Positions 2,902 through 61,387 of a DNA stretch of 64,000 nt are shown piece by piece. This DNA comes from a plasmid. The position numbers and the translations under genes are program-made. Positions within the stretch are counted from its first letter, which is position 1; each line of letters begins with the position of its first letter. Location: the sequence record NZ_CP084508.1, one strand, 5' to 3'. Under the pieces are notes generated by a model. It saw nothing but the letters and a program-made list of their open reading frames with translations, searched no databases and was not told the origin of the DNA.

Positions 2902-3684
2902 ATGAAAAAGAATTTAATTACACTGACAGTGGCTATTTCCGCAGCAGTATCTGGCTCTGCTATGGCGTGGACTGCAAATAGTCTTGGAGGTTCTGTAGAG
3001 TTTGGTGGGACATTGACACCTGCGGATATAGTGACACCATGGGAGGTTTACATTGGCTCGCCTGTAAATAATATAAATGCAGATATAAAAAAAGGGAGTC
3101 ATCTGGTTGATATTCCTGTTGTTAGTCCTATTCCAATTCTGGGGATTCGTACTACCACATCATCACCAATCAAGGGACAACCGGGAATTTCTCCACAGAT
3201 TGACTTCCAAGGGACAGTAGATATTAGTAAAATAAAAGATAACGAAGCGGTATTTCATGTTGATGTAGTAGATGTTTCGAACTCTAAAGTAATTGGTATG
3301 TTATCCGCCCCGTTACTGGTTGCTGCTGAGTATTCTTACACTGGACGATATGATGGAGCTTATATGATGCATGCGCAAAATGAGGGAGATGCTTTCTTTG
3401 GCGGTTTACCGCCAAAAGAAGGAGGCATTTCTCCTAGCATTCGTTCTCGCATTGAAAACATTAGTCCTGATTTTGTTCGGAAATATAATAACCAAGGATT
3501 CCCTAATCCAAGAAAGGTATCTAACGCCTGGAACTTTGCTGATGGTGATTATTATATCAGTGCTTTTTACGGGGCAGGTATTGAGCAGGGAAAATTAATC
3601 ACCCTCACTCTTGATACCCCTATAACAACATCTGATTCCATTACTTGGAAAGCCTCTCTGCCAATAACTATTTCCTATCGGTAA
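2902..3684 (+). CDS. putative fimbrial minor subunit/adhesin (260 aa, pilin-like C-terminus ...ITISYR)
   Basis: It has a signal peptide (MKKNLITLTVAISAAVSGSAMA). The C-terminal beta-strand shows the pilin-like alternating pattern with a penultimate aromatic residue. An RBS (AAAGGAG) is present and it sits in the operon. Confidence 0.45.
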   Translation: MKKNLITLTVAISAAVSGSAMAWTANSLGGSVEFGGTLTPADIVTPWEVYIGSPVNNINADIKKGSHLVDIPVVSPIPILGIRTTTSSPIKGQPGISPQIDFQGTVDISKIKDNEAVFHVDVVDVSNSKVIGMLSAPLLVAAEYSYTGRYDGAYMMHAQNEGDAFFGGLPPKEGGISPSIRSRIENISPDFVRKYNNQGFPNPRKVSNAWNFADGDYYISAFYGAGIEQGKLITLTLDTPITTSDSITWKASLPITISYR

Positions 3685-3885: not shown

Positions 3886-4689
3886 ATGCTGATGAAAGTA
3901 ACGCGCCGTTATAAATACCATCTCTCCGCTCTGATAACAGTCGCTCTGTTTTCTTCGGCCGCACCTCACGCAGATATTCTTGACGGTGGAGAAATTCAGT
4001 TCAACGGACTCGTTACTGACGAAGCGCAGAAATGGTCCTGGCAAATAAGTACGCCTGGTCAGACCTGGGCAGTGGACATGGCCGATGCTCGAACGGAGAA
4101 CGGGCAGTTGGTTTTTGATTTGCGTGATAAAGGCACCTTATCGTTTCTGGAAGGCCATCTGCATGAGGTGGCAGAGCGCGGCGGCCCCGGATTCATGCCA
4201 TTTATTACCTTCGGCAACAGTGGGCAACCTTTTACCGTAACGGAGGGTGGTGATACCTCGGCACAACGTTTTCGCGCCTTTGTCCCAGTACGAGACCCGG
4301 AAACGGGGAGCGTATCGGGGCAGCTTTTTTTCACCCTGAATCAGGGGATAGCGGTCAGTGCTGGCAGACAGGAAGACGGAGCCCCTGTTCCAGCTGGCAT
4401 GTCACTGGTCAGTGGACAGAGTGTAACGGAGGTGCAGTCAAACAATCTATCACAGAAGCTGAAATCTCGACTCTCTTCCTTATTGCTGATGAATCAGAAT
4501 TTCGGAAGTGGCATGAGTGCATTGGATAACGGTCTGGTTATCAGTCAGGGGGTACTGGCTGACGGTCGTGTAAAGAACCTGGCTGCATCGTATGCCTCTG
4601 CGGTGTCTGATTTTGAGCTGCGTTTGTCAGCTGAAGACACACCGGCAGCGTGGCAGGCAGGGCTGAATGTGACGGTCACTGTACAATAA
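3886..4689 (+). CDS. putative fimbrial minor subunit/adhesin paralog (267 aa, C-terminus ...NVTVTVQ)
   Basis: It has a signal peptide and a pilin-like C-terminal strand. It is tandem with its neighbours. The start may be the ATG at 3892. Confidence 0.4.
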
Positions 4690-4715
4690 TGGACGCAAGG
4701 ATATAAGAAAGAGAA

Positions 4716-5480
4716 ATGAAAAAGGTGACGTTGTTTCTGTTCGCTTTCAGCCTCCAACCTTCCTGTGTACTGGCTTGGAATACACCGGGAGAGAATTTCA
4801 GTGGAGAGCTTAAGCTGGAAGGTCCGGTGACCAACACACGTAATCCGTGGGTGTGGAAAGTCGGGCCGGGAAATGAACGTCTGGAGGTTAAGCCAAAAGG
4901 AGACACTCATAACAAGGCGCAGAGGATGCCTGTTTCTCTGCCAGCAATGACGATATTGCTGGGAAAAACCACATTGACCACACCGACAAGGCATGAGGGA
5001 TGCTCCCCCAAAGTAATCTATGGGAAGGAGGTAGAAGATTTTTCCCTTACATGGCTCGGAACAGGGATAGCCGAAGTAACGCTTCCCGTAAGCGGTAACA
5101 ACAGTCTCCGGGTGGGGACATTTGTTTTCAGGATGCAGGTGGCGGCGGTTCTGCGGCACAGACAGGACGGGCAGGATATATACGCCAGTGTACATAATGA
5201 CCTGAATACGAATGGTCTTCCTGGAGAGGGGCGAACCATGCAAGCAGGTAACGTCCCGAGTGTGCTGCAAATGATGTTCAACGGGGAAGGCCCAAACTGG
5301 CTGCAGGACATGGTGGTGACCGATACAATAGGCCTGAGCCGTTACAACGATGCTTCTCTGCGCCAGGTGGAGGGAGTTTACGGTACCCAGATAGTGGCTG
5401 ACAGCGGTGAGTTACGTCTGTTCGGGGCGGTACCGGATCGCTGGCTGGCATCACTACCAATAAGTATTGAATATCAATAG
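4716..5480 (+). CDS. putative fimbrial minor subunit/adhesin paralog (254 aa, C-terminus ...PISIEYQ)
   Basis: It has a signal peptide (MKKVTLFLFAFSLQPSCVLA). Its C-terminal motif W-x-A-S-L-P-I-S-I-x-Y-Q parallels that of the ORF at 2902-3684. Confidence 0.4.
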   Translation: MKKVTLFLFAFSLQPSCVLAWNTPGENFSGELKLEGPVTNTRNPWVWKVGPGNERLEVKPKGDTHNKAQRMPVSLPAMTILLGKTTLTTPTRHEGCSPKVIYGKEVEDFSLTWLGTGIAEVTLPVSGNNSLRVGTFVFRMQVAAVLRHRQDGQDIYASVHNDLNTNGLPGEGRTMQAGNVPSVLQMMFNGEGPNWLQDMVVTDTIGLSRYNDASLRQVEGVYGTQIVADSGELRLFGAVPDRWLASLPISIEYQ

Positions 5481-6306: not shown

Positions 6307-8451
6307 TTGTTAGTCACTAATCGACGTCAGTTTATTAAGCTTGTTGTACAAACTATAGGGTCAGTATTTGCAATGGACTCATTATTTAGCAATATTCGAC
6401 TGGCTATAGCGAGCGAACCATCCATCGATGATGAATTCCTGTGGCTGGAAGATCTGCAGAGCAAAAGATCTCTGCAATGGGTACAGAAGGAAAATCAGCG
6501 CACTATGGCGCGTTTCACCCGGAGTAAAGAATTTTTGCGTGTTGAGCGAGAAATTCTGGACATACTCAATAAAGACACATTGATCCCCTGGGTGAGTAAA
6601 TATGGAAATTACTATTACAATTTTCGGCAAGGGCAGGACAATCCACAAGGGGTGCTAAGGCGTACAGTTCTGGTCGAGTATCGCAAGGCCGAGCCAGTTT
6701 GGGAGACGGTGTTGGATTTTGATGCGTTAGGAAAAGCGGAGGACAAGATGTGGGTTTATCAGGGTATGCAACCTTTGGCACCGGAATACCGATATTGCCT
6801 GATATACCTGTCGCCAGATGGTGGTGATGCCACCGAAATTCGCGAGTTCGATCTGGTGGCCAAATGTTTCGTAAAAGATGGCTTCAATGTACCTGTGGCG
6901 AAAAGCCGGGTATCATGGGTTGATCAGGATACATTGTTTATAGCTACCGATTTTGGCCCCGACTCAATGACTCGCTCTGGCTACATGCGCATAGTTAAAC
7001 GCTGGCGGCGTGGTAAGCCACTGAGCATTGCTGAAACGTTGTATGAAGCACGGCCTGAAGACGTGGAGGCCTTTGCTTATCACGATTACACACCTGGCTT
7101 TGAGCGTGATTTTGTCTGTCGAATAATAGACTTATATCACTGTGACTATTTTTGGCTGACTCAGGATGAGCAGCTTATTAAAATCGATATCCCGGCTGAT
7201 GCTGAACTGAGTACGCATCGGGAATGGATGTTAATCATGCTGAACAGCGACTGGGTAGTAGGCGGTAGGATCTATCCGTCTGGTGCACTGTTGGCAACTA
7301 ATTTCGACGATTATCTGGCGGGTAAGCGCGAATTACAGTTGCTGTTCACCCCCACTGTAGAGTGTGTGTTAAGCGGCTACAGCAAAACCCGCGATTATCT
7401 GATCCTCAGCATCATGGATAACGTAATCAATCGATTGGAGGTATTGATCCCGCAGAAAGGCTGCTGGCAGCATCACCCTCTGAGTAGTCCCGGTTCCATA
7501 TGCACTATTTCCGCTGACGGCATTGATGAAGAAAGTAACGACTATTTCCTGACCACCAGTGGATTTCTACAACCAACCTCGTTGTACATAGGTAACCTCG
7601 ATGGTGGTGAAGCCACATTACTGAAACAAGAGCCGCAGAATTTTGACGTCACGGCCTACCAAGTTAGCCAGCATTTCGCTCGCTCAAGAGACGGTACTCG
7701 TGTGCCATATTTCCAAATTGCTGCCAACGATCTCAAACTGAACGGTAGTACGCCGACTCAACTATATGGTTACGGCGGTTTTGCCGAGTCGCTACTGCCA
7801 GGATATCTGAATGACGAGGCTCCGGCCTGGTTGGAGCGCGGAGGAGTGTATGTCGTGGCTAACATTCGTGGTGGTGGCGAATATGGCCCTGCATGGCACA
7901 AAGCGGCGCTCAGACAAAATCGACATCGAGCTTATGAAGATTTTGTAGCCGTGGCTGAAGACCTGATTGCGCGCAAAGTAACCTCTACGCCACATTTGGG
8001 CATACGCGGTGAGAGTAACGGAGGCTTATTGGTAGGCAATATGTTAACGCTGTATCCGCAGTTATTCGGGTGCATTGTCTGTGGAATGCCTTTGCTGGAT
8101 ATGCAGCGTTATACTCAGCTTTCCGCTGGAGCGTCATGGATCGCAGAGTTTGGTGATCCGGACAAGCCTGAGCAGTGGGCCTATATCAAAACGTTTTCCC
8201 CATATCATAATATTAAAGCGCGAACGGCCTACCCACCGGTGTTATTTTATACAGCCACCAGTGATGACCGTGTTAACCCGGCTCATGCACGCAAAATGGC
8301 GGCGCGTATGCAGGCGATGGGGTATCAGCAGGTATACTTTTATGAGAATATTAAAGGAGGTGGGCACAGTTCTGCCGCGGACAAACAGCAAACGGCCTTT
8401 ATCAGTGCGATGGTGAGCGAGTTCATGTGGTCCAACTTGAATAACAAGTAG
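6307..8451 (+). CDS. S9-family prolyl oligopeptidase-like serine peptidase with twin-arginine (Tat) signal
   Basis: The start is TTG, preceded by AAGGAG. The N-terminus (NRRQFIKL) is a Tat motif. The nucleophile motif GESNGG lies near 8006-8023 and the C-terminus carries a ...GGGHS... His motif. The 714-aa length is typical of the prolyl oligopeptidase family. Confidence 0.8.
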   Translation: MLVTNRRQFIKLVVQTIGSVFAMDSLFSNIRLAIASEPSIDDEFLWLEDLQSKRSLQWVQKENQRTMARFTRSKEFLRVEREILDILNKDTLIPWVSKYGNYYYNFRQGQDNPQGVLRRTVLVEYRKAEPVWETVLDFDALGKAEDKMWVYQGMQPLAPEYRYCLIYLSPDGGDATEIREFDLVAKCFVKDGFNVPVAKSRVSWVDQDTLFIATDFGPDSMTRSGYMRIVKRWRRGKPLSIAETLYEARPEDVEAFAYHDYTPGFERDFVCRIIDLYHCDYFWLTQDEQLIKIDIPADAELSTHREWMLIMLNSDWVVGGRIYPSGALLATNFDDYLAGKRELQLLFTPTVECVLSGYSKTRDYLILSIMDNVINRLEVLIPQKGCWQHHPLSSPGSICTISADGIDEESNDYFLTTSGFLQPTSLYIGNLDGGEATLLKQEPQNFDVTAYQVSQHFARSRDGTRVPYFQIAANDLKLNGSTPTQLYGYGGFAESLLPGYLNDEAPAWLERGGVYVVANIRGGGEYGPAWHKAALRQNRHRAYEDFVAVAEDLIARKVTSTPHLGIRGESNGGLLVGNMLTLYPQLFGCIVCGMPLLDMQRYTQLSAGASWIAEFGDPDKPEQWAYIKTFSPYHNIKARTAYPPVLFYTATSDDRVNPAHARKMAARMQAMGYQQVYFYENIKGGGHSSAADKQQTAFISAMVSEFMWSNLNNK

Positions 8452-17397: not shown

Positions 17398-17999
17398 TCT
17401 ATCATCTCCTTTTTTCCTGCTTATTTAATTAGACTCAATTTGATTATTTTTTCACCTGATAATTCGCCACATAACAACCGTCAGAGTATCAATATTGATT
17501 TATAATGGCCACTTACAGATCCAGAATCATTCACATTTATTTTTGATCCAAAACCATAAATACTGGTATTGACATACCAGAAAATCTTCATTAATGCAAT
17601 AAATTTTCGATATCTAAATTAACCCTATCTTAGGAGCGATGAAGAGAATAGTTAGTCACTGGTCATGGCCGTTCTGGATTTCGTACTCTAATGGTTCTCC
17701 AGAGCTAGAAGAGAGTTCAGGTATTTTTATCCTATTAACTTCCTCCCTGAAGGTTAGTCTCCAAGGTTACCAGATTCGGTTTACTTTCTGCGGTTTTTAC
17801 GACAAAGGATGAATAGCCATGACACAATAACGACACCAGAAATACCGCTGATGCTGTACTTATGATCTAAATACCATTGGTATCAGCGTTGCTGAAGGTA
17901 CCTCCTTGAACCAATAGCTTGCCTTTCCCCCTAACCACTGGGCTAAACCTAACAATTGTAGAATGGTAGCAACACCGTAAATCGCCAGTTCTGTGGTGT

Positions 18000-20880
18000 G
18001 AATTGAACTATGCCGACGTTATACTGTTATAAAACATTTCGAGGTAATCAAAAATATTGCGATGGGCTTCTTCCCGAGTCCCATAGTTTTTTTCTTTAAT
18101 CCATTCACATTTCAGTAGCTGGAAAAAACCTTCTGCAACTGCGTTGTCATGACAGTTACCACGACGGCTCATACTGCCCTCCAGTCCGTGTGATTTCAGG
18201 AACGACTGCCACTCATGGCTTGTGTACTGACTACCTTGATCAGAATGAACCAGCACCTGTTTTTGGGGATTACATCGTCACATGGCCATCATAAGCACAT
18301 TCAGGACAATATCTTTGGTCATTCGGGCAGCCGATAACTTTGCGCAAGAACATGTCAACAACCACGGCCAGATACAGCCAGCCTTCGAGTGTTCGGAGTA
18401 GAGTAAGAGACAGGACGTGTCGGACTATTTCCCTGCATCTCCGAACCGGACGTGCACCTTTCAGCGCATCCGGCTCTCCGTTTAAACGCTGGCTAGTGCC
18501 ATTGCCACTTCCGGGTACCGTGATGTATTTCTAGCTTCCAGCCTCAGGTAAGGGTTATCTTCTGGCAATTGCCAACGGAATAGCTTCTTGCCTTGCCCTA
18601 ACAACCGGTAAAGTGCTTCACCGTTGAGCCTCCCGTAGTTGGTTATTACCAAATAAAACTTACGTTTTACTCTGACCTGGTTTCGGTGATTTACACCACC
18701 ACCTCATCAGGAATGCAATACCTTTACGATATTTTCGGGAGTAGACAGAACACCACGCGGTCAATATAACTGAATACTTTTGCTTTAAAATCAATAAACT
18801 GTTAGAACACAGCCCAGCCTTTCAGCTTCTGGTTGAATATCTCAACCATATCGATTTTGCTTTCTAAGCATTATGTTCGACAGCCGCGGATATTACACCA
18901 CCCAGCATACGCCTTCACTGGCTACCCGAAAGAGACCGACATCAATATGTCCCGCTTTGATTGTTTTCCACAGCAGAACCATGAAACGTAACTCACTGCT
19001 CCTGCGGCGTACGGTTTTCATCAGTAATCGATGAGGTACGGTGTCAAAACAGGTCACCGTCAATCACCCTGCGGCCCCGTGTCTCACCACAGTCTGTGTT
19101 GTTGTTCCGTTCAGGCCGGAAACCGTACGAAAGCGCATGAAAATCACTTTCCCATTCCCATATTAGCCCCCCTAGACATCAGCATGGCCCGTTGAATAAT
19201 ACGATCCCGCAACGTGGGGCTCCCCAACGGCCACTGTTTACCATTTCTTTTGGAAATGCAAACCCGCCTGGCGGACGACGGCTGGTAGTGGCCAGAGATT
19301 AATTCAACCCTAAGTCCTTGCAGTTCAGCAGCCAGCCTGGCCTGCAGCACAAATTTATTCACGCCATCAACACCGTGTGTATGAGCACCTTTTGATGAAA
19401 GCGTAATTCGTGTAGATTCAGCCAGCTATTCTGGCTGTGTTATCAGACGCCGCAACCGTTCAATCCGTCGGGACGGATCGGCTATTGCCCATGAGGCAAG
19501 CTTGCGTTGTATTTCGCTGATCATCAAAGGTCTTCACCTCATTGGATCAGGTAGCGTGCTCAGCAAACACATTTAAGCTGCCTCCCTTTGCCATGTAATG
19601 GGTTTTCCCCATCGCGGACTACTACGGAAGCTCCGCCAGCCAGCGCGTCATCGGAGCCATGCCTCCTTAACATCCGTCACTGACTTTTCCCGGTTTACCT
19701 GCCCGGACTCAAACATACTGAGGAGGCTGCCAGTCGCACTCTTTATCCTTGCTTGCTGCAAGGTGGTAGAAGTCAGCAACGCTGATCGTGATAGGCGCTG
19801 CTGACCGGTGCTTCGCATACATATCAAAACACCGTCGATCGGCCGTGCTTACGTATAACCACCAATCCCTCCCGCACGGCCTGTCAGATCACGTAGACCA
19901 TGGTGATATTTTCAACCCACAGAGGCGGATTAACGGGTTCATGTTCCTCAGCCTTTCAGTACTCAACCTTGAGGATCATCTTGGCTTTCGCCTCAATCTC
20001 CGTTGTCAGCGAGTTACATCACCCGGCGAGCATGCCGTAGGTCACTGCCGCTCGTCATCACACCCAACGGGATTGTTGGACTTTTCGTCATGAGTTACCG
20101 GTTCAATATTCCAGATAGACTCGTGGTTCATTTGAGCATTCATGCTCGCCCTAAACTCCAGGCACACTGTAAGTTATGTCCGTTATCCAACGTTCATCCG
20201 GTACTTCCAGATTGAACTGCCGCTGGCCGCTGGAGTCTGTTGGGTGTCACGATACTGGCCTCACATTTACGCGTTCGTGGGCTTCGATAGCCGGCCTAAG
20301 CTTTTCTCCCGGCACGCATCATGAGCCGCCAGAAACGGTTAATCCCGCATTGTTGCCCGCTATCTCTCAGGTCGTGATGGATCTTGCGATAGCCATAAAC
20401 GCAACCGTGCTCGGGCTCCAACCAGAACTGCTTGATTTGTCCAGCCAGCCTGAGATCCGCCTGATACCGTGGTGAAGGAGGCTGCTGAAGCCAGGTGTAA
20501 AACCCACTCGGATGAACATTCAGCCCCCGCCAGAGTAGACGAACAGGTCAACAACAGGAGTTGTCACGGATAAAGGCGTATCTCAATCGGACAGTTTTGC
20601 AAAGTACGCTGCAGCTTTTTTTATATGTCCCGTTCGTCAATAACCCGCTTCAGCTCATTCTGGAGTCGACGGATCTCGGCCTGAGCATCTGACTGCTCTT
20701 TGTTGGTGGAGGAGTCCAGCACGTACTTCTTTATCCAGGTATAAAGGTTGCAGGTAGTGATACCGAAACATGTTGCAACACTGGAAACAGAATGGACACG
20801 ATCAACAACCAGTTTGACAGCTTTCAATTTTAAACTCTTCAGGATAACGCTTACTGCTCATGTGCACCTCTCTTTAAGCC
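18000..20880 (-). mobile_element. IS3-family (IS3-group) element remnant whose orfB is interrupted by a group II intron
   Basis: orfA is at 20621-20827 (..VSSVATCFGITTCNLYTWIKKY..SSTNKEQSDAQAEIRRLQNELKRVIDERDI, continuing as ..LKKAAAYFAKLSD). The orfB N-terminal fragment runs to about 20170 (..LEVPDERWITDITYS). The orfB C-terminal half is at about 18008-18410 (EGWLYLAVVVDMF..., then ..HSDQGSQYTSHEWQSFLKSHGLEGSMSRRGNCHDNAVAEGFF..). Confidence 0.65.
18410..20167 (-). mobile_element. group II intron (degenerate intron-encoded protein) inserted in IS3 orfB between ..DITY and LRT.EGWLYLA
   Basis: On the minus strand a 5' GUGUG/GUGCC-like start lies next to the orfB break at about 20167. The intron-encoded protein starts at about 19522 (MISEIQRKLASWAIADPSRRIERLRRLITQPEWLAES..KGAHTHGVDGV..YQPSSARRVCISKRNGKQWPLGSPTLRDRIIQRAML, which are RT domain 0/1 motifs) and continues with stop-riddled RT domain 2-4 motifs (..CFDTVPHRLLMKTVRRR..) down to about 18700. 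A canonical 34-nt domain V (GAGCCGGATGCGCTGAAAGGTGCACGTCCGGTTC, with the AGC triad and a GAAA loop) lies at 18433-18466 on the minus strand, about 25 nt before the exon resumes. Confidence 0.7.
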
Positions 20881-21429
20881 ATTCTAAATGACTCTGAGGT
20901 GTCTGTTAAAACCATGGCGATTCAGCCATGCTGTGGTGGCTGGTGCTGATCTCCAGCTTTGTCATTACTAAAGTGCTAACTCTTTAACGACTGGCGTTTA
21001 TTGAGGTGTTCATATCCTGCTAGCATAACCACTCTATCAGCCTAGAGACTCACCACATTCGGCTGAGCCATCACATGGTAGTAAACTGCTGAGATACACA
21101 TCCATGTAAACCCACCAAGCAATGGCTCAGCCGAGCGTAGTGTAAGTGTAATACTTATATAAAATCCAGCAATATCAAACTGTTAGATAAATTACCCAAA
21201 CAACACATAACAAAATGTACGCACCGCACAATACTCCAACCCAAAAACCCAACTTCCCCATACTACAATCATGTTGCGATGTATCAATTATACTAATTTA
21301 AAAACAGTTATTGAAGAATGTCTATATCAATTTCGTTTTTGATTTACTCTTTTTTCATAAAAATAGTCATCGATAAAAAATGCTCAAATAAGAAAATCAG
21401 TTGTGATTCAGACGTGAGATGAACCAGCA

Positions 21430-21990
21430 AGCTGAGTCAGTTCCTCTCTTCTCCTCCCCACTCGGGATGAAACCACTCATCTAGTGATGAGATTTCACAG
21501 GCCTTAGTATAAGTACTCTAGCTTTAGCTCCACGTATTGTACTTTTTGAGAGCTCCGATTTTTCAGCTATCAGCCAACGCTGCGTTTCCCGACTTTTATG
21601 TATGGATAATGTAGTTATCCACACTGACACATCGCTTTAAGATGCTTTAACAGGCTGATAAATAAGGCTGAGCCTTTGCTGTTGCCGCCCACGTAGCTAA
21701 CTTTGCTCGTACCACAGAGCAGCACTCTGGCCAGATAGTATTTCTCATTCTGCCCAGGTATTACCACGCGTTTTTGTTGTCTTCGTACCTGCCAGTCTGT
21801 GCTGATTTTGGGATTAAGATGGATATCCACTTCATCTTCATAAAAGACGAGATTCTCTGCGCGACATTCGCCCAATATTTTATGGGTTACCGCACCTTTC
21901 TTATGAGGGTCGTAGATACACAGGGTTGTGTGCTGCCCTGTGCTACGCCAGACCCGCAGAGGGCAGCCAGCAGTGGAAGATAGATATTTT
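21430..21990 (-). pseudogene. IS630-family transposase fragment (divergent, DDE-domain part, frameshifted)
   Basis: ..ENLVFYEDEVDIHLNPKISTDWQVRRQQKRVVIPGQNEKYYLA..VSYVGGNSKGSALFISLLKHLKA.. matches the intact IS630-family copies elsewhere in the window. It then shifts frame (..VDNYIIHKSRETQRWL..). Confidence 0.5.
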
Positions 21991-22089
21991 TAATGTAAAT
22001 GTTTGTAACTTACTGAAGTTGCATCACAGTTGTATTATACAGAATTTTATACTTTTCCCTCACTGAGGATAAAATAAAAGAGGGGAAGA

Positions 22090-23511
22090 ATGAAATTATC
22101 ATTTAAATGGAAAAAGTTATTAGGGATAAGTGCTATTACGACAATCTTTTATGTATTACCACCACCAGGCGGGTTGTCTATTAACGGCTATCATTTATCT
22201 TTGTTATTCGTAGCAACTATTGCTGCCATAGTGCTAAATGTTATGCCTACAGGAGCCATAGCAATACTATCTATTGCAGTTTATTGTGTCACTTTACCTG
22301 TGGAGAAAATAGGCTCAGCAGCAATAAAAACAGAACTACATAATTTTAGTAATTCTTTAATTTGGCTGATTGTAATTGCTTTCATGATAGCGAAAGCATT
22401 TACTAAAACCGGTTTGGGTGAGCGAGTATCACTTATTCTGCTTAAGAAATTTGGCACATCATCATTAAAAATAGCCTACTGCATAGGTTTGGCTGACTAT
22501 ATACTGGCCCCAGCCACACCTAGTAATACAGCAAGATTTGCAATAACGTCACCAATAGCGAATGGTTTAGCTAAAACCATAGCTCCAGAGGATAAAAAAC
22601 TTGGCGAGTTTTTAATAAGTAATGCATCAGCAATGAACGATGCATCAGCAGTTGGTTTTAGTACCGGCTTTGCTGGCAACCTAGCACTCGTTGGAATAGC
22701 TTCAACTTTACTAGGAATTCATTTGACTTTTTTAGAGTGGACGTACTATCTATTACCGCCATCAATAGCTTTGTTTATAATTATACCATTTATATTATAT
22801 TACTTTATCTCTCCAAATACAAAAAAAACCCCTGACGCACCAAAATTTGCTAAAGCAAGGCTTTGTGAACTAGGAAAAATCACACTACCAGAAATATTAC
22901 TGTCTATAGTTTTCTTATTACTAGTGGTTATGTGGATCGTAGGTCCATTACTAAACTTAGATGCTACAAGCGCTGCATTTATAGGCTTGTCAGTAATGCT
23001 TATGCTTGGGGTTCTAAGTTGGAATGATGTGAAATCTGAATCAAGTGCTTGGGATACACTTATTTGGTTTTCTGTTTTAATGGGAATGGCTGATAACTTG
23101 AGAAAACTTGGTGTTGTAAAATGGCTTGGTGATGGAATTTCGTCACTCTTAGCTAATGTCATGAGTGGAGCATCACCAGTTTTATTTTTACTTGTTTTGA
23201 TGTTGTTTTTCCTAATAACATCTTATTTGTTCGCATCAGGAACAGCAAAGATAGTAGCGCTTGGTGGAGTGATGATTGGATCATTATTATCACTCCATGT
23301 GCATCCAATTATAGCCGTTCTTTCTATTGCAGGAATAATGAACATTGGTTGTAACCTAACAACTTACTCTCATGCTAGAAATCCTATTGCACTAGGATAT
23401 GGATACCATTCCCCTAGTCGCTGGATGGTTAATGGATTGATTATAGGATTGTCTGGATTTATTATTTTTATGACATCTGGTTTAATATGGTGGTCAATAT
23501 TAGGACTTTAG
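22090..23511 (+). CDS. polytopic membrane transporter, probably DASS/SLC13-type (divalent anion:Na+ symporter) or ArsB/NhaD-superfamily permease
   Basis: It is 473 aa with about 12 TM segments. It has a PSNTAR hairpin-tip motif like DASS SNT motifs. The GC is low (~35%), it has an RBS, and it is flanked by IS and intron debris. Confidence 0.5.
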   Translation: MKLSFKWKKLLGISAITTIFYVLPPPGGLSINGYHLSLLFVATIAAIVLNVMPTGAIAILSIAVYCVTLPVEKIGSAAIKTELHNFSNSLIWLIVIAFMIAKAFTKTGLGERVSLILLKKFGTSSLKIAYCIGLADYILAPATPSNTARFAITSPIANGLAKTIAPEDKKLGEFLISNASAMNDASAVGFSTGFAGNLALVGIASTLLGIHLTFLEWTYYLLPPSIALFIIIPFILYYFISPNTKKTPDAPKFAKARLCELGKITLPEILLSIVFLLLVVMWIVGPLLNLDATSAAFIGLSVMLMLGVLSWNDVKSESSAWDTLIWFSVLMGMADNLRKLGVVKWLGDGISSLLANVMSGASPVLFLLVLMLFFLITSYLFASGTAKIVALGGVMIGSLLSLHVHPIIAVLSIAGIMNIGCNLTTYSHARNPIALGYGYHSPSRWMVNGLIIGLSGFIIFMTSGLIWWSILGL

Positions 23512-54751: not shown

Positions 54752-55675
54752 TTAATGTCGAACCTGCTCGAGCTCAGCGGCTGTTAAACCGGTCACCTGC
54801 ATAATCGTAGCGTGATCTATACCGATAGCCAGCATGTTGCGCGCCATTTCGCGCTGAGCCTCTTGGCGGCCTTCCTGACGGCCTTCCTGACGGCCTTTGT
54901 GAATGCCTTTCTGCATGCCTTTCTGTTCAAGTTGTTCAGCGATGGTCATCAGCGTGTCTCCATGTTGCGGCACTTGCGATGCCAGGGTGGTTAGCAGGGC
55001 CTCCGGGTTTTGTGTCTCCCCGACCTGGAACATGTAGTTCATCAGGGTGCGCACCTGCTTTTCGGTAGTGTAGCCTGCCAACAGTAATGTGACCACCTGG
55101 TTTAGCAACTCAGCCAGGTCACGCTGCCGGATATGCTTCTGCAGCAGCTCCAGCAAGGCGATGCGCTTGTGCTGCATGATCTCGTCATCCGGGATGACGG
55201 TGATATCCACCAACGGGAAATCACCGCAGTATAGCTGCCTGGCCAACGCCGGGTTGGCAAACTCCTGTAACCAGGACAGGCTGTAGGGATACGGTGACGT
55301 CTGCCCTTGGTAGAACAGGATGGGTATCACCAGAGGCAATGTGTCGTGGCCGGCATCGAGGTGTTGTTGCATGGCAGCAATCGCATAACGCATCAAGCGA
55401 AATGCCATGTGCTTGTCCGGTCGGGATTGATGCTCGATCAATGTATAGATAAAACCGTCCCCACCCTGGGTCTTCAGGGTGTACAACACATCACTGTAAT
55501 ACGGGCGCAAGCTCTCTTCGACAAACGAACCGGGAGCCAGTTGCAGCGTATCGAGGTCACAGATTTCCCGCAGTGCCGGCGGCAGATGAATAGACAGAAA
55601 ATCCCGGGCGGTCTCGGGGTGAGTGAGGAACGCCTTGAATACGCTGTCGTGAGGAGTCGCTGGATGTTTTTTCAT
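54752..55675 (-). CDS. Rpn-family (YhgA-like, PD-(D/E)XK) recombination-promoting nuclease/putative transposase
   Basis: The N-terminus (HDSVFKAFLTHPETARDFL..LPPALREICDLDTLQL) and the C-terminal ..LAIGIDHATIMQVTGLTAAELEQV are YhgA/Rpn-like. It contains a tandem EGRQ codon repeat. Confidence 0.75.
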   Translation of the reverse strand: MKKHPATPHDSVFKAFLTHPETARDFLSIHLPPALREICDLDTLQLAPGSFVEESLRPYYSDVLYTLKTQGGDGFIYTLIEHQSRPDKHMAFRLMRYAIAAMQQHLDAGHDTLPLVIPILFYQGQTSPYPYSLSWLQEFANPALARQLYCGDFPLVDITVIPDDEIMQHKRIALLELLQKHIRQRDLAELLNQVVTLLLAGYTTEKQVRTLMNYMFQVGETQNPEALLTTLASQVPQHGDTLMTIAEQLEQKGMQKGIHKGRQEGRQEGRQEAQREMARNMLAIGIDHATIMQVTGLTAAELEQVRH

Positions 55676-55905
55676 TCAGGTATATTAACATTTTACCCTG
55701 CCTGCAGATAGCGGGCGGCCATATTATCAAACCCAAAAATCACAACGACCCGGACGAGCGAGCCATCCTTTGGAGGGGGTAGCTCAGACCGCTACGACCT
55801 CTATCCGACTTAGAGTACGATTTTCTCCATTTTCCAAGCGGCCCCCAATACTCGATCATTGTTCGAACGATACCCTTCTATCTCACCATGTTGTGAATCC
55901 TATTT

Positions 55906-56088
55906 CTACTGGCACTTGATACCGGCCATATCAGAAGAGGATGATGGGGCTACCGTTCCTCCTTGAATATCATGAATATAGTTTGCCTGACAGGCTGAAA
56001 GAAGAAAACCTAACGTTGCAAATAATATAAAAAAATAAATTTCTTTTTTCTCATAAATTTCCTTATTGATATAGCTACCAGCATTCAT
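55906..56088 (-). CDS. bacteriocin release (lysis) lipoprotein, copy 2, cloacin DF13 BRP-like
   Basis: The mature part CQANYIHDIQGGTVAPSSSSDMAGIKCQ closely matches the 28-aa colicin/cloacin lysis lipoproteins (CQANYIRDVQGGTV..PSS..). The lipobox is LSAC. The canonical RBS+ATG (MRKKKFIF) is out of frame by one T in a T7 run. The in-frame call uses the upstream ATG (MNAGSY..). Confidence 0.75.
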   Translation of the reverse strand: MNAGSYINKEIYEKKEIYFFILFATLGFLLSACQANYIHDIQGGTVAPSSSSDMAGIKCQ

Positions 56089-56135
56089 CCTTGATTACTG
56101 GTAGCTTGCTCATCAATTATTAATTGCTAATGGGA

Positions 56136-56393
56136 TCACCAATTTCCATCCCGATAATCAAAAGCTATATAATAATTATCCAAATCAGGCTTTATTTGAT
56201 TTTTAAAAAATGGCTGTAGTAAAGCAACCCATTCTTTCTTCAAATCAAACTCACCATTATTAATATTATCCTTTAAAGGCATCCCCAGACTTTCAATGAC
56301 AGCCCCATCATCACCAAAATCTTTAGAATACTCCTCACCTTTAAAATCGCTTGTCTTCTTATCAAACCATGTCAAACGTAATTTAAGACCCAT
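56136..56393 (-). CDS. rRNase-colicin immunity protein (ImmE3/cloacin DF13 immunity family), orphan copy
   Basis: [68 protein letters not shown]. Im3 reads [37 protein letters not shown]...FDYRDGDW. It is 85 aa. Confidence 0.8.
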
Positions 56394-56395
56394 AT

Positions 56396-56520
56396 TTACC
56401 TCTCAAAGATATTTTTTAATATTACGTTTAGGATCGGGAGACTTTAACTGCTTACCAGTCTTATGGTCAAAAGAGCCTAAATGCTCACCATCGCTCGAAC
56501 GATACCCTTCCATCTCACCA
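56396..56520 (-). pseudogene. 3'-terminal remnant (last ~40 codons) of a second rRNase bacteriocin gene
   Basis: It translates HGEMEGYRSSDGEHLGSFDHKTGKQLKSPDPKRNIKKYL*. This is near-identical to the C-terminus of the intact bacteriocin at 57035-58828. It is joined directly to the end of the upstream lysis gene. Confidence 0.75.
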
Positions 56521-56537
56521 TGCTGTGAATTCTATTT

Positions 56538-56720
56538 CTACTGGGACTTAATACCGGTAACAACAGAAGAGGATGATGGGGCTACTGTTCCTCCTTGAAT
56601 ATCATGAATATAGTTTGCCTGACAAGCTGCAAGAAGAAATCCCAACATTATAAAAGATATAAAAAAACAACTTTCTTTTTCCTCATAAATCTCCTTATTA
56701 GTATAGCTACCAGCATTCAT
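56538..56720 (-). CDS. bacteriocin release (lysis) lipoprotein, copy 1
   Basis: The mature part is CQANYIHDIQGGTVAPSSSSVVTGIKSQ and the lipobox is LAAC. The canonical start MRKKKVVF is again out of frame at a T7 run. Confidence 0.75.
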   Translation of the reverse strand: MNAGSYTNKEIYEEKESCFFISFIMLGFLLAACQANYIHDIQGGTVAPSSSSVVTGIKSQ

Positions 56721-56767
56721 CCTTGATTACTGGTAGTTTGTTTATCAATTATTAATTACTAATAAGA

Positions 56768-57025
56768 TCACCAAACTCCATCTCGATATACAAAAGAGAT
56801 AAAATAGTCAAATTGGTTAATATCAATTACATTTTTAAAATGTGGCTGCAATATTGAAACCCATGACTGCTCAACATTAAACCATCCATTATTTATATTA
56901 TCTTCCAAAGGGAGACCTAAACTCTCAATGATAGAACCATCATCACCAAAATCCTTTGAATACTCTCCCCCTTTAAACTCTTCTGTTTTTTTATCAAACC
57001 AATGAATATGTAATTTTAGTCCCAT
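56768..57025 (-). CDS. cognate immunity protein of the rRNase bacteriocin (ImmE3 family)
   Basis: [51 protein letters not shown], 85 aa. It starts 9 bp after the bacteriocin stop. Confidence 0.85.
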
Positions 57026-57034
57026 AATTTCCTC

Positions 57035-58828
57035 TCAAAGATATTTTTTAATATTGCGTTTAGGATCAGGAGATTTTAACTGTTTCCCTGTCTTATGATC
57101 AAAGGAGCCTAAGTGTTCACCATCACTGGCACGATATCCTTCTAACTCACCATGCCGAGAGTCCCATTCATAGATTTTACGCCCTTTATCGCCATACCAC
57201 CTAGCTCGCTTCCCTCCTCCGTTTTGTTTTGGTGTTTTAGGTTTGCCCTCTTGCAATTCGCCTAATCCATGAATATCTTTTGTTTCTGGATCAGGGTAAT
57301 AATCATGACCATAATCCTTAAGCCCTTTTCGAGGTTTTTTCTTCTCCTCATTAACTTTATTTTCCGCAGCTTTTTTCTTCCCTTCCTTTTCTCTGCGATT
57401 CTCTAATGCATGAGATAACGCTTGCTCCGCTAATGTCAATTTATCCTTGGCAACAATTAACCTATTTCGGATTTTTCCGTACTCGATTAATTGCCCTTCA
57501 AGAGCTTGTCGAGATGCCTCTCGTGAATCTTTATCAGGGTTACCTTCATTAAAATCCCACCCAAATGCTTGCGCCCCTTGTGAGATCAGTTTATCACGAT
57601 CTTGTATCGTATTAATCTGTCCAACAGTACGAATTGTGCCACTATAATACGATGTTTTAAAAGGAATTGTTCCTTCTGAAACAATGGGGTATTTTGATGG
57701 ATCATTCCATGACTTTACATCAGGTTCATTTCTGACCCGCTCCAGTTCACGCTGTTGGCTAGTAACATTCTCCCTTGCCCGACGAAGCTCATCATTTGCA
57801 ATAGCCAGGTCATGCTTTGCGGCCTCAAGAGGATAAGATGCATTCCACATCTGTTGACGACGTCGATCTTCCGCCTCACGCAGTTTTACTTGTTCAGGTG
57901 TTAGCACATCTGATACGGAAACATAAATCGGTTTAACATTACTATTATCGGGAAAGCGGATCACTGCATCATGGGTGTTCCCTCCCGCACTAAACCCCAC
58001 AGCTTTTTCATCACCCCGTTCAGTAGGAATGCCTTTAGGCTGGCTAACGGATACAGGCGTATTATTCTTAATACTCAGATGGATATCCGGCTTACCAGGT
58101 ACAATACTGGCTATAAAAACACCAGGACGGGAGGTTGGCTTAGCTTCAACCACAGGGACACTCATTGGTACACCAGCTACCACTGCCAGCTTTTGCTTTT
58201 CATCCTGAATGATATCCGCCACCCGATTTTTTACCCGAACAGTAGCCGGCTGTAGAGGTAATGAGGGTGCCAGTGGTGCATCTAACACTTTATCTGCCGG
58301 AAGAGATGTCATAATTTGAGACATCATATTAGGATCATCTTTTGCGATTTCAGAGGGGATTAACACACCAAAAGTTACCCCCATTAATCGCCCAGCATAA
58401 GGCAGACCTGCAACTAAACCCTGCTCCAGCTTTGCCATTGCGTCCAATAAAGCTTTCTGAATTGGTGCAGTACGAAACAGAGAAAATCCCCACATACCAT
58501 CAATAAGAGAAATATTCATCGGCACGCCATAAGCGACATTGGCTTGAGCCTCAGGGAATAATGACAGATTAACGCCAGAGCTAGCGTGATCTTTATCACC
58601 ACCATTTCCACCCCGACTCCATCCGGCATCGGGACGTTCCCGTCCACCATAATGAGTAATAGAGCCTCGATGATCTGTTGTCGTTGAGGTACCATCACCA
58701 TTATCACGAGTATGCCCGCCTAAATTCTTCCCATCGTACCCACCAGTGGACCCTCTATCTCCACCACCAGGGTTTCGGCCTCCACCAAAAGCATTACCGT
58801 GAGCATTATTGCCCCCATTTCCACTCAT
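57035..58828 (-). CDS. colicin E3/cloacin DF13-type bacteriocin with C-terminal 16S rRNA-cleaving RNase domain (klebicin/cloacin-like)
   Basis: The N-terminal translocation domain is Gly-rich (SGNGGNNAHGNAFGGGRNPGGGD..). The C-terminus (..KTPKQNGGGKRARWYGDKGRKIYEWDSRHGELEGYRASDGEHLGSFDHKTGKQLKSPDPKRNIKKYL) matches the colicin E3 ribonuclease domain. An RBS (AGAGGA) precedes the ATG at 58828. Confidence 0.8.
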   Translation of the reverse strand: MSGNGGNNAHGNAFGGGRNPGGGDRGSTGGYDGKNLGGHTRDNGDGTSTTTDHRGSITHYGGRERPDAGWSRGGNGGDKDHASSGVNLSLFPEAQANVAYGVPMNISLIDGMWGFSLFRTAPIQKALLDAMAKLEQGLVAGLPYAGRLMGVTFGVLIPSEIAKDDPNMMSQIMTSLPADKVLDAPLAPSLPLQPATVRVKNRVADIIQDEKQKLAVVAGVPMSVPVVEAKPTSRPGVFIASIVPGKPDIHLSIKNNTPVSVSQPKGIPTERGDEKAVGFSAGGNTHDAVIRFPDNSNVKPIYVSVSDVLTPEQVKLREAEDRRRQQMWNASYPLEAAKHDLAIANDELRRARENVTSQQRELERVRNEPDVKSWNDPSKYPIVSEGTIPFKTSYYSGTIRTVGQINTIQDRDKLISQGAQAFGWDFNEGNPDKDSREASRQALEGQLIEYGKIRNRLIVAKDKLTLAEQALSHALENRREKEGKKKAAENKVNEEKKKPRKGLKDYGHDYYPDPETKDIHGLGELQEGKPKTPKQNGGGKRARWYGDKGRKIYEWDSRHGELEGYRASDGEHLGSFDHKTGKQLKSPDPKRNIKKYL

Positions 58829-58863
58829 AACGATTCCTCTTTGACATATAAAAACCAAAAATC

Positions 58864-58901
58864 AATACTGTACATAAACACATGTGTTTATGTACAGTAT
58901 T
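58864..58901. promoter_or_regulatory. SOS (LexA) operator: 38-bp perfect palindrome AATACTGTACATAAACACATG|TGTTTATGTACAGTATT with overlapping CTGT-N8-ACAG-type half sites, 35-70 bp upstream of the bacteriocin start
   Basis: This was read directly. It is the classic dual LexA box arrangement of colicin promoters. Confidence 0.75.
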
Positions 58902-59666
58902 GATGCTAGCTCTACGATAGTTAGCTGTCAATGCAATTAATTTGATTGCAATCAAAATTTCAACCGATGTGAATGGGAGGGAGCGTTCAGTCAACCCCTT
59001 GATCCAATGGGTGAGCCGTGCGCAAGTAGCATCTTTGAATGCCGCAAAGCGGCATGGAGGCGCCAACAGATGTTGAATAGAACACTGTCAGTGACTGGCG
59101 CCGTCGCCCGGCGCAGCCGGTTACTGTCTTGATAGGTTTCACCTTACCCATCCCTTGCCCTGTAAAGCCATAATCCGCTAACAGAGAGCGTAGATGTGAA
59201 TGTGCGCCGTCGGAGTGGTCACGACAAGGCGTAGCCGTAGTCGGGGCGTATCTCCGCGTTAGCGGGCCGTTAGGGCCGCTTACGGGCGTGTTATACCGAA
59301 CTTTTCAGGCGCAGTATTCCTAACAGCAGCGATTAATTTTAGTTACAACATCCATTATTAAAAGCGACATCATCCCGGCCCAGAGGGCCGGGGCGCCGTC
59401 GCTTTTCAGTGGTGGGATGGGCGTTGGTGTTTCTGCTGGGCGCGGTACTGATGGTGAGTTTGGCGGTGGTGTTTAGCTAGGCTGAGTTTGGGGCCCATCG
59501 CAACGCGATGGGAGGTACTTTTTAGATGTTGTTGCCGGTTGGCTTTGGTGTTGCCAGGGAAGGGTTTGTGCCCGAGTGAAACGAGGGAGCTACCATCGAG
59601 AGCAGCCGTAAGGCTAGCTCGATGCTTACTCCCTTTTTTAAAAAGGGCTTTTGTTCAGAAACAACG

Positions 59667-59903: not shown

Positions 59904-60980
59904 TTAGATTTTAAAGGCACCGGTACGCTCAAGCAGCAACTTGTAGAACGCCTCCGCGTCCTGCTGCAGCAGTCCAGGGTACTCACGTTTAAGGATTTCC
60001 TGTAGCTGCAGCAACTGGATTGGCGTCATCGCGCCGGTGATCGACCACTGCGTAAACTGCTGATAGTAGCTGTGCGTTTTCCGCTTGGCCAGCTGCCGGA
60101 TGTTCTGGTTGGTCTCATCCAATTGTTGCTCCAGCGCCGAGCGTTGCGCCAAGGTTTGCTCTATCGTGGCCACAGCCTGAGCCTTATCCCGTGCCAAGTC
60201 CGGGCTGACCACCCAGCGCTTGATTTGGCGCAGCCGGTTACGCAATGAGTGACGGGATTTCAGGTCAATACCGATACGCTCAATGTGCACCAGGTGTTTT
60301 TCATAGCGTTGGCGCAGTGTCTCCGTCAGACCGTTCTTCATCGCCCAACGCTTGAATTTGCCCAGCCAGTCACGTATTTCATCGACCTGGATACCGCGCG
60401 AAGTAAAGAACGTCTCGGATAGCCAGATACGCAGCGGCTTGTTCTGGCCACTGTCGCTGTCCTGGGTATGCAGCACAATGACATAGCCCAGCTGCTCCAT
60501 CACCGAGAGGGCATGCAAGGCAACGTCGTAAGCTTTGCGACCGCTCTCGTAAACGTGCAGTACCCCCATCGCCGAGGCGATTTGCTCAAACGGTACCATC
60601 ACTTCGAAGGGATAGTCGCTATCCGGGTTGTAATCCGTGTGTGCAGCCAATGCCTGGGAGAGAACCGTTAACGCTTCACGGCTCTCTGAGCGTGTGCTGA
60701 TCCGCATCGGTTTGGGCACAAAATTCGGATCATGACGATAGGCATAGGGAATATATCCCCGCTGGCGCAGGGCAATCAGATCGCCATTGCGATTCCAATC
60801 GTGACGGCTAATCCGTGCCACGACTTTTGACGCCATACCACGCGAAACGGCACAACACAGTTTCGGCTGATAGCGGCGATGGATTTTAGGCTGTCCCTTA
60901 CGGGCCGCATTGGCCGCACCCCGCCGATTTGGCGAGTGGGACAGGTTATCGGCAATCGACGGAGAAAGGTTGCTATACAC
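59904..60980 (-). CDS. repA: plasmid replication initiator, IncFII RepA-family-like
   Basis: The central region (..YDVALHALSVMEQLGYVIVLHTQ..KPLRIWLSETFFTSRGIQVDEIRDWLGKFKRWAMKNGL..) parallels RepA1 (..ITRATRALTFLSELGLITYQTEYDP..). It lies next to finO and traX as in F-like plasmids. The true start may be the internal MASKVV... Confidence 0.55.
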   Translation of the reverse strand: MYSNLSPSIADNLSHSPNRRGAANAARKGQPKIHRRYQPKLCCAVSRGMASKVVARISRHDWNRNGDLIALRQRGYIPYAYRHDPNFVPKPMRISTRSESREALTVLSQALAAHTDYNPDSDYPFEVMVPFEQIASAMGVLHVYESGRKAYDVALHALSVMEQLGYVIVLHTQDSDSGQNKPLRIWLSETFFTSRGIQVDEIRDWLGKFKRWAMKNGLTETLRQRYEKHLVHIERIGIDLKSRHSLRNRLRQIKRWVVSPDLARDKAQAVATIEQTLAQRSALEQQLDETNQNIRQLAKRKTHSYYQQFTQWSITGAMTPIQLLQLQEILKREYPGLLQQDAEAFYKLLLERTGAFKI

Positions 60981-61387
60981 CCCGCCCTGCGCTTATGTTG
61001 CGCGGACAGAGTACGGAGCACAGAAAGGATTGCAGTTTTCCGAGCATGGCTTTATACTCCCTGCATAGAGCAACAGCTTCTATGCAGCATTGTAGTGAGC
61101 CCCGTTAGTCTTCTTCTAGTCGCCAAACCTGGGAAGATTATCGGGGTTTTCGCTTTTCTGGCGCGGAGTAACGTCCCCCTCACCAGCTCCCTGCCACCTT
61201 GCGGCGTGGCCCGCCATGAATTCGTCTGTCTGTATCCTGCCCTCGCCCCTCATCATCAGTGATGATGAGGGGGCAGAAACAGCGCTTCTCGCAAGAATAC
61301 TACAGACAACCCAAAAAATTAACCTGTTTTCGGTCTGTTTTGGCGTACAGACGGCAACAGGATCAGAATGATGCATAAAAGGCGGCA

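Follow-up and report, generated by a model that had tools for sequence, protein, structure and literature searches.

The window analysed here, a 64,000-nt stretch of plasmid record NZ_CP084508.1, carries on its minus strand a bacteriocin operon in which the toxin, immunity and lysis genes typical of nuclease colicins are followed by a second, partial unit. In the direction of transcription, the locus consists of a promoter with a double LexA-type operator, the toxin gene, the immunity gene Imm1, a hairpin, the lysis gene lys1, a toxin remnant (stub2), a second immunity gene (Imm2), another hairpin, a second lysis gene (lys2), and the beginning of a further toxin remnant (stub3; Table 1). It is very probable, in our view, that this is an operon of the colicin E3/cloacin DF13 family on an IncFII plasmid of Edwardsiella tarda, whose second unit combines the remnant of another toxin allele with Imm2 and lys2.

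Table 1. Features of the bacteriocin array and its flank, in window coordinates except for the last row; L001, L002, L003, L004 and L007 are loci of related Edwardsiella plasmids
Feature	Position	Strand	Remarks
Sigma-70-type promoter	58903..58931	-	TTGACA, 17-nt spacer, TAGCAT; best match in region, 10/12
44-nt perfect palindrome (operator)	58861..58904	-	two overlapping LexA-type boxes CTGTACATAAACACATGTGTTTATGTACAG, 58868-58897
Toxin gene	57035..58828	-	597 aa; Pfam Cloacin (PF03515) 9e-68, Cytotoxic (PF09000) 9e-32
Imm1	56768..57025	-	85 aa, presumed cognate; Pfam Cloacin_immun (PF03513) 7e-45
Imm1-lys1 stem-loop (T1-like attenuator)	56707..56736	-	AAGGAUGA in loop; AAGGAG Shine-Dalgarno sequence next to it
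lys1 (colicin-release lipoprotein gene)	56538..56686	-	149 nt, 1 nt short; run of seven T (T7) at 56661-56667
Stub2	56403..56537	-	39 intact codons (HGEM...KKYL) plus stop, preceded by decayed Trp-Asp-Ser-Gln codons
Imm2	56136..56393	-	85 aa, orphan, intact; Pfam Cloacin_immun 1e-38; own GAGG Shine-Dalgarno sequence
Imm2-lys2 stem-loop	56073..56106	-	unit 1 type, with AAGGAUGA and AAGGAG
lys2	55906..56054	-	149 nt; T7 run at 56029-56035; repaired product Pfam Lysis_col 4e-23
Stub3	55847..55905	-	lys-to-toxin-tail junction again, then HGEIEGYRS (55864-55890); homology fades at ~55847
8-bp repeat ATCCTCTT	57827-57834 and 55935-55942
Rpn/YhgA-type nuclease gene	54752..55675	-	Pfam Transposase_31 9e-88; outside operon
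Rpn gene in relatives	L001 6966-7901; L002 8035-8958; L003 6888-7823; L004 4893-5816; L007 5975-6886

The first unit resembles the operons of colicin E3, cloacin DF13 and klebicin CCL in its translocation (T) and ribosomal-RNA nuclease (rRNase) domains, its immunity family, its lysis lipoprotein family and its promoter-operator layout. The promoter lies directly upstream of the operator, as in the Escherichia coli plasmid ColE9-J, and the operator closely resembles the ColE9-J double operator CTGTACATAAAACCAGTGGTTTTATGTACAG; at the sequence level, this is a predicted LexA-controlled promoter. From a Gly-rich N-terminus, the toxin runs through a translocation domain and a central (receptor-binding) part that is divergent, to an rRNase domain of the colicin E3 type at its C-terminus. 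Its PF03515 match spans residues 46-329 and can be aligned to the T domain in each of colicins E3, E9 and E7, and its similarity to colicin E3 (2b5u_A; E 9e-131) covers the translocation domain and, end to end, the rRNase domain. Residues ~367-459 are unaligned, and the central receptor-binding part has no match in colicin E3. The WDSRHGELEG motif retains the catalytic Asp, His and Glu, equivalents of D510, H513 and E517, whose roles in the rRNase domain have been described (PMC4905994). By its family, the product is predicted to be a killer protein that cleaves 16S rRNA. Imm1 starts 9 nt past the toxin stop codon and shares 89% identity with the immunity protein found in one large group of cloacin-type plasmids from Klebsiella. 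The family assignments come from Pfam; in an NCBIfam scan, no family matched the toxin, either immunity protein, the lysis proteins or the stub.

A second unit behind a toxin remnant

When the two units are aligned over toxin tail, immunity gene, spacer and lysis gene, they are 82% identical across ~685 columns, far above chance. Toxin homology starts directly past the stop codon of each lysis gene, where the sequence reads TAG AAA TAG AAT TCA CAG CAT; the Klebsiella-type tail counterpart reads GAA TGG GAT TCC CAG CAC (Glu-Trp-Asp-Ser-Gln-His). In stub2, TAG has taken the place of the Trp codon and AAT that of the catalytic Asp codon, and the N-terminal toxin domains are missing altogether; as a toxin, stub2 is predicted to be inactive. 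The coding part of the remnant (56406-56522, with the stop codon at 56403-56405) translates to HGEMEGYRSSDGEHLGSFDHKTGKQLKSPDPKRNIKKYL, which matches positions 46-80 of the 80 positions in Pfam Cytotoxic (E 5e-12), and in its residues, SFDHKTGKQLKSP, it follows the Edwardsiella type and not the Klebsiella type AFDPKTGKQVKGP.

The origin of stub2 is legible in how it differs from the resident toxin tail. Over the 39 intact codons, 101 of 117 nt are identical, and 14 of the 16 differences fall at third codon positions, leaving only two amino acid changes; the nonsynonymous divergence (dN) is 0.027 and the synonymous divergence (dS) 1.1, a ratio of about 0.02. Because the differences are nearly all at third positions, the two sequences must have diverged while translated and under selection, as parts of working genes. 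By this pattern, stub2 is what is left of another toxin gene's 3' end, one that was functional until fairly recently, and did not arise by decay of a copied resident tail. The array closes with the opening ~45 nt of a third toxin remnant, stub3, which in the related loci L001 and L007 runs on into a third immunity gene (imm3).

Imm2 belongs to the same family as Imm1 and matches ImmE3 (1e44_A) with an E-value of 3e-38, and the two proteins of the array are 65% identical (71% at the DNA level). The closer relatives of Imm2 lie elsewhere: it is 92.9% identical to an immunity protein encoded on 10-12 kb Klebsiella plasmids, where the gene adjoins that of the toxin and is its cognate, and the band of 90-95% identity to Imm2 contains 378 records. 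Against L007 and Klebsiella, the dN/dS of Imm2 is 0.07-0.09. The identity to a Klebsiella cognate fits protection against a different rRNase, and Imm2 most likely confers immunity to a second rRNase specificity, that of a common cloacin-like toxin of Klebsiella, and would spare the host the expense of producing the toxin itself. In isolates of K. pneumoniae, cloacin-like types rank among the most prevalent bacteriocins (PMC10269471). For Imm3, no close cognate turned up in the plasmid collection, with nothing above 75% identity outside Edwardsiella.

The immunity proteins differ at alignment column 48, the residue after NNG, which is W in Imm1, E in Imm2, G in Imm3 and C in ImmE3. This column is reportedly the determinant of ImmE3/ImmE6 specificity (Cys47; Masaki 1991). 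We use it as a lead only; if it is, the residues would be compatible with three different specificities in the Edwardsiella arrays.

Most of what the initial annotation had described is borne out by these comparisons. All of its elements are present on the minus strand with small coordinate offsets, and its SOS-regulated (DNA damage-induced) rRNase operon of the colicin E3/cloacin family agrees with the Pfam domains, the colicin E3 match and the ColE9-J-like promoter and operator. Its range of 55862-58901 misses the -35 hexamer of the promoter (58926-58931), which lies just outside. The proposed repeat of the immunity-lysis module reappears in the alignment of the units, and its position behind the 3' end of another toxin gene is upheld by the Pfam matches and the third-position differences. 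Both immunity-like genes fall into Pfam Cloacin_immun, in keeping with the supposed ImmE3 relationship, and the resemblance of the stub translation to the toxin C-terminus is likewise confirmed. The divergence of Imm2 from Imm1 stands, with "about 70%" identity now resolved into separate protein and DNA values. The toxin 3' end placed at 56396-56520 exists but was set 2 nt off, and has 39 intact codons; the third toxin-tail stretch placed at 55862-55888 does contain HGEIEGYRS, but at slightly different positions and with homology extending further (Table 1). The claim that the second unit begins exactly at HGE(M/L)EGYRS does not survive, as toxin similarity already starts right after the lysis stop codon.

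Lysis genes and expression of the second unit

Each immunity gene is separated from its lysis gene by an 84-nt spacer that is predicted to fold into a stable hairpin, with a minimum free energy of -22.3 kcal/mol (z-score -5.0) in the first unit and -23.3 kcal/mol (z-score -3.8) in the second; the two spacers differ at 9 of 84 nt. In position and in their GGA motifs, these hairpins match the T1 and CsrA sites of ColE7, in which the stem-loop between imm and lys, together with GGA motifs in the loop and at the Shine-Dalgarno sequence, attenuates the lysis gene, and CsrA binds both sites (PMC2896534).

Both lysis genes are one nucleotide short. With one T added, lys1 encodes a 49-aa protein that matches Pfam Lysis_col (PF02402) at 2e-24, and the products of lys1 and lys2 are identical at 39 of 49 residues (dS 0.25). 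In L001 and L002, the lysis gene has eight Ts (T8) and is annotated as a 49-aa lipoprotein, whereas the T7 run in both genes of the window puts the canonical MRKKK start out of frame with the lipobox. The 60-aa lysis open reading frames (ORFs) of the initial annotation need correction, as their ATG lies in the hairpin loop between imm and lys; homology places the gene starts at 56686 and 56054. T7 also occurs in both lysis genes of E. tarda FDAARGOS_1473 and in the lys2-type gene of L007, and the T7 state of lys1 and that of lys2 are each seen in two assemblies. A sequencing error was considered and rejected: a survey against relatives revealed no general loss of homopolymer bases in coding regions, and the second assembly also has T7. 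Short-read contigs end before the lysis genes. The T7 state is probably real, and, with both lysis genes affected, release by lysis has probably been lost or strongly reduced in this plasmid.

We also considered that the T7 run might serve as a throttle or as a phase-variable T7/T8 switch, in which a -1 slip or an extra U restores the 49-aa lipoprotein (MRKKKVVFL/ISFIMLGFLLAAC...), and in which case a small, tunable fraction of lysis protein would be made. The canonical frame at the run reads U_UUU_UUA, a classic -1 slippery heptamer in the correct phase. However, such a heptamer arises automatically from any change of T8 to T7 and is in itself no evidence for recoding, and we give this possibility little credence.

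In Klebsiella and Citrobacter cloacin-type operons, which have no stub, a terminator follows right after lys, whereas here the stub occupies that place and no terminator-like site was found between lys1 and imm2. Imm2 is therefore expected to be co-transcribed with the operon, at least under SOS conditions. In the working model, which we infer from the nuclease colicin family, DNA damage would strip LexA from the double operator, and the toxin, with its translocation domain, lineage-specific receptor part and 16S-rRNA-cleaving domain, would then be made along with Imm1. The stem-loop with CsrA-type GGA motifs would restrain read-through into lys1 and its translation, and, without a terminator after lys1, transcription would continue into the second unit. 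A constitutive imm promoter inside the stub was considered and set aside as unsupported. Weak matches do lie at homologous positions in the toxin tail and stub2, but the region as a whole has fewer promoter-like matches than the mean of its shuffled versions, and the Klebsiella tail does not conserve the -10-like hexamer. No RNA structure was found in the stub (z-score +0.55).

Several observations weigh against this reading or limit it. The promoter-like site in the stub (56470-56441) is no better than chance and gives no support to constitutive expression of Imm2; Imm2 is set apart from the Klebsiella immunity protein by six residues and may have another specificity; and there are faint signs that stub2 is itself a hybrid of stub and tail (30 versus 27 matches of 33). 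In addition, the frameshifted lysis genes, the decayed loci L003 and L004 and the frameshifted imm3 of L007 indicate that such arrays are partly eroding, and unit 2 is possibly on its way out. Taken further, unit 2 might be inert debris in a decaying locus, with Imm2 unexpressed or useless, as the frameshifts in both lysis genes, the deletions, insertion sequences (ISs) and broken imm3 among relatives and the lack of a convincing promoter of its own would allow. We think this rather unlikely: the Imm2 ORF and its Shine-Dalgarno sequence are intact in two strains, its dN/dS against L007 and Klebsiella is low, and no terminator parts it from the SOS-driven operon. Elsewhere, moreover, orphan immunity genes with truncated toxins are kept across plasmids (PMC12546727), and one such gene is protective (PMC4905994).

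Origin of the array and its states in related plasmids

The junction between lysis gene and stub is identical after lys1, after lys2, and in L001, L002 and L007, which points to one ancestral junction that was copied by homologous recombination and not remade each time. The original junction shows no filler and no more than 3 nt of microhomology. We propose that a single illegitimate event would have linked the sequence just 3' of a lysis gene to a toxin gene lying downstream, at about its codon 508, after which homologous recombination, in the conserved toxin tails and stubs and in the lysis genes, would add, swap and delete cassettes of stub, imm and lys. The initial annotation had invoked recombination between short homologies at toxin C-terminal ends; homologous recombination among the repeats is retained from that proposal, but not independent short-homology events, as the junction is the same everywhere.

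Divergence is unevenly distributed within the repeat. Tail and imm have saturated dS values of 1.1-1.4, compared to 0.25 for lys and 9 of 84 nt in the spacer, and by this measure the parts of the array differ in age, with tail and imm being old and lys and spacer being young or homogenised. Unit 2 is also a mosaic, with an Edwardsiella-type tail, a Klebsiella-type Imm2 core and the same kind of spacer and hairpin as unit 1; L007 has the same type of Imm2, but follows it with a Klebsiella-like spacer. These distances bear on the alternative that unit 2 arose when the resident tail, imm1 and lys1 were simply duplicated in tandem and then diverged where they stood, with no second toxin gene ever involved. 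The units are indeed collinear, share the lys-to-stub junction and the hairpin type, and have diverged by merely 11-13% in lys and spacer. But a single duplication would not yield such different ages for tail/imm and lys, the almost exclusively synonymous differences of the stub are unexpected for a non-coding copy, and the grouping of Imm2 with the Klebsiella cognates and with L007, where it sits behind a ~70-codon remnant, refutes an origin in place; we regard duplication as very improbable. That the repeat is an artefact of long-read assembly is scarcely credible, since, although short-read assemblies break just after imm1 (1.9-kb contigs), as they do at repeats, two separate assemblies have the same structure, the units are too divergent to be collapsed or duplicated reads, and L003 and L007 independently retain the lys2-stub3 junction and the order imm2-lys2-stub3, respectively.

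The recombinational origin that we favour is illustrated by the related loci. L007, a second locus on pEtSC002-2, has a longer, ~70-codon Klebsiella-type toxin remnant; behind it lie imm2 (95% amino acid identity) and lys2, then a stub3 that is degenerate and an imm3 with a frameshift. L001 and L002 have the order tox-imm1-lys-stub3-imm3, and their single lysis gene is lys1-like at its 5' end and lys2-like at its 3' end, a chimera that we read as the footprint of a crossover between lys1 and lys2 that removed unit 2. In L003, from the plasmid of E. tarda KC-Pc-HB1, a deletion has fused the toxin gene with the end of lys2 at the 8-bp direct repeat ATCCTCTT (~6600-6660), which occurs at both corresponding places in the window (Table 1); by this signature, L003 is a microhomology deletion of a window-like array. 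It also has an IS110 element in the toxin gene, and stub3 and the downstream sequence are retained. In L004, the toxin N-terminus is joined to sequence just upstream of the Rpn gene. Comparison of these Edwardsiella plasmids shows an array that appears to grow and shrink by recombination among its repeats. In the simplest history that we infer, the ancestor would have been tox-imm1-lys1-stub2-imm2-lys2-stub3-imm3, and the plasmid of the window would have lost imm3 in a rearrangement beside the Rpn gene; the break that truncates stub3 sits just upstream of this gene. The locus and four relatives thereby preserve successive states of the array: gain, the deletion between lys1 and lys2, microhomology deletions, and an IS hit.

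The degenerate stub3 of L002 contains an insertion of ~1.1 kb (~6527-7640), with the palindrome TTAATGCTAATGTACGCATACATTAGCATTAA near both ends of a 160-aa ORF. This ORF has no significant Pfam match, and the insertion is probably an IS-like element.

Precedents and plasmid setting

The architecture is already known, with direct precedents and recurrences in other genomes, and the locus is no new kind of system; gene finders and the Prokaryotic Genome Annotation Pipeline (PGAP) already name the parts of the array correctly. The initial annotation had likened it to the E3/E6/E8 mosaics and to orphan immunity arrays. The orphan type is apt, but ColE9-J and the pyocin S6 remnant of Pseudomonas aeruginosa PAO1 are closer precedents than E3/E6/E8. 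Like our locus, ColE9-J has a complete SOS-regulated nuclease colicin operon followed by a 3' fragment of another toxin gene, an immunity gene and a second lysis gene. Its record (NC_011977.1) lists a "colicin E5-related ribonuclease" fragment at 4262-4540 and lys at 4957-5100, and the ORF at 4530-4859, annotated as "colicin transporter", lies where the E5 immunity gene would be expected and is a candidate for it. The E5 part has been called a "second, partial colicin operon" (PMC6856555). The units of ColE9-J represent different toxin classes (DNase and tRNase) and its first lysis gene is degenerate, whereas both units here are of the E3 rRNase type; moreover, ColE9-J is a small ColE2-type plasmid, unlike the Edwardsiella IncFII plasmid, on which the junction is repeated a third time.

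In PAO1, downstream of pyocin S2, which is a different and complete bacteriocin, a 250-nt remnant of pyocin S6 (PF09000, an E3-like rRNase) is followed by an orphan immunity gene that is intact and has been shown by experiment to be protective (PMC4905994). Unlike the Edwardsiella array, the PAO1 remnant is chromosomal, lacks lysis genes and forms a single unit, and its immunity protein has borderline similarity to ImmE3 (18.5% identity; PMC4905994), whereas Imm1 and Imm2 are clearly ImmE3-like. On E. coli plasmids, orphan colicin immunity genes are widespread, some of them with truncated toxins (PMC12546727), and the orphan effector-immunity arrays of contact-dependent systems offer a parallel (PMC5361080). 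The Edwardsiella array differs from the arrays of contact-dependent inhibition (CDI) and of type VI secretion systems (T6SSs) in delivery system and protein families, and in that each cassette also carries a lysis gene. In CDI orphan cdiA-CT/cdiI modules and in Vibrio cholerae T6SS arrays, immunity genes stand behind displaced toxin C-terminal fragments, through recombination in conserved flanks.

A census of species-representative genomes yielded 63 loci with ImmE3-type genes, 10 of which have two or more such genes. Short rRNase C-terminal fragments lie directly before an immunity gene in Morganella (L061), Pluralibacter (L062) and Yersinia (L020), and an uncultured Enterobacteriaceae locus (L009, 1-3100 of CANRKT010000016.1) has two identical rRNase stubs, each before a different ImmE3-type gene, as well as two further ImmE3-type genes. 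The same locus also contains DNase-type immunity genes, one of them behind a C-terminal remnant of a DNase (HNH) toxin. Another remnant of this kind lies at 2921-3103, and one lysis gene forms an in-frame fusion with an immunity gene. Orphan cassettes are a known route by which bacteria gain extra protection against the toxins of rivals, and the window offers a clean, well-resolved example of how colicin-type operons gather them. An Edwardsiella plasmid with immunities matching both large Klebsiella cloacin-type groups suggests, as a hint, bacteriocin warfare across genera.

The 8.3 kb around the array are identical to GCA_900447385.1 (contig UFYK01000002.1, 145,762 bp), and differ from CP082940.1, a 145,764-bp plasmid of FDAARGOS_1473, by nine substitutions and one indel. 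All nine substitutions fall within 90 nt of the Gly-rich toxin N-terminus (58613-58700), a clustering that suggests a small recombination patch, and the indel is at 58835 in the ribosome-binding region of the toxin gene (GAGGAATCG versus GAGGAAATCG). An exact copy of the Imm1 protein is also present in the draft of E. tarda ATCC 15947. No near-identical plasmid was found in the plasmid collection, in which the closest are Edwardsiella IncF plasmids at 92-97% identity, and the species-representative genome collection returned no Edwardsiella locus. The IncFII backbone nearby includes CopA RNA (61065-61155), the replication gene (59904-60980), DUF2726, FinO and TraX, and efflux genes of the copper/silver type lie farther along the plasmid. 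A recombination-promoting nuclease gene of the Rpn/YhgA type (PF04754) borders the array, in one orientation or the other, in all Edwardsiella plasmids compared. Well away from the operon, 4.7 kb without long ORFs (17400-22090) contain pieces similar to an IS3-type integrase, an IS630-type transposase and the reverse transcriptase of a group II intron, and this region looks like a graveyard of mobile elements.

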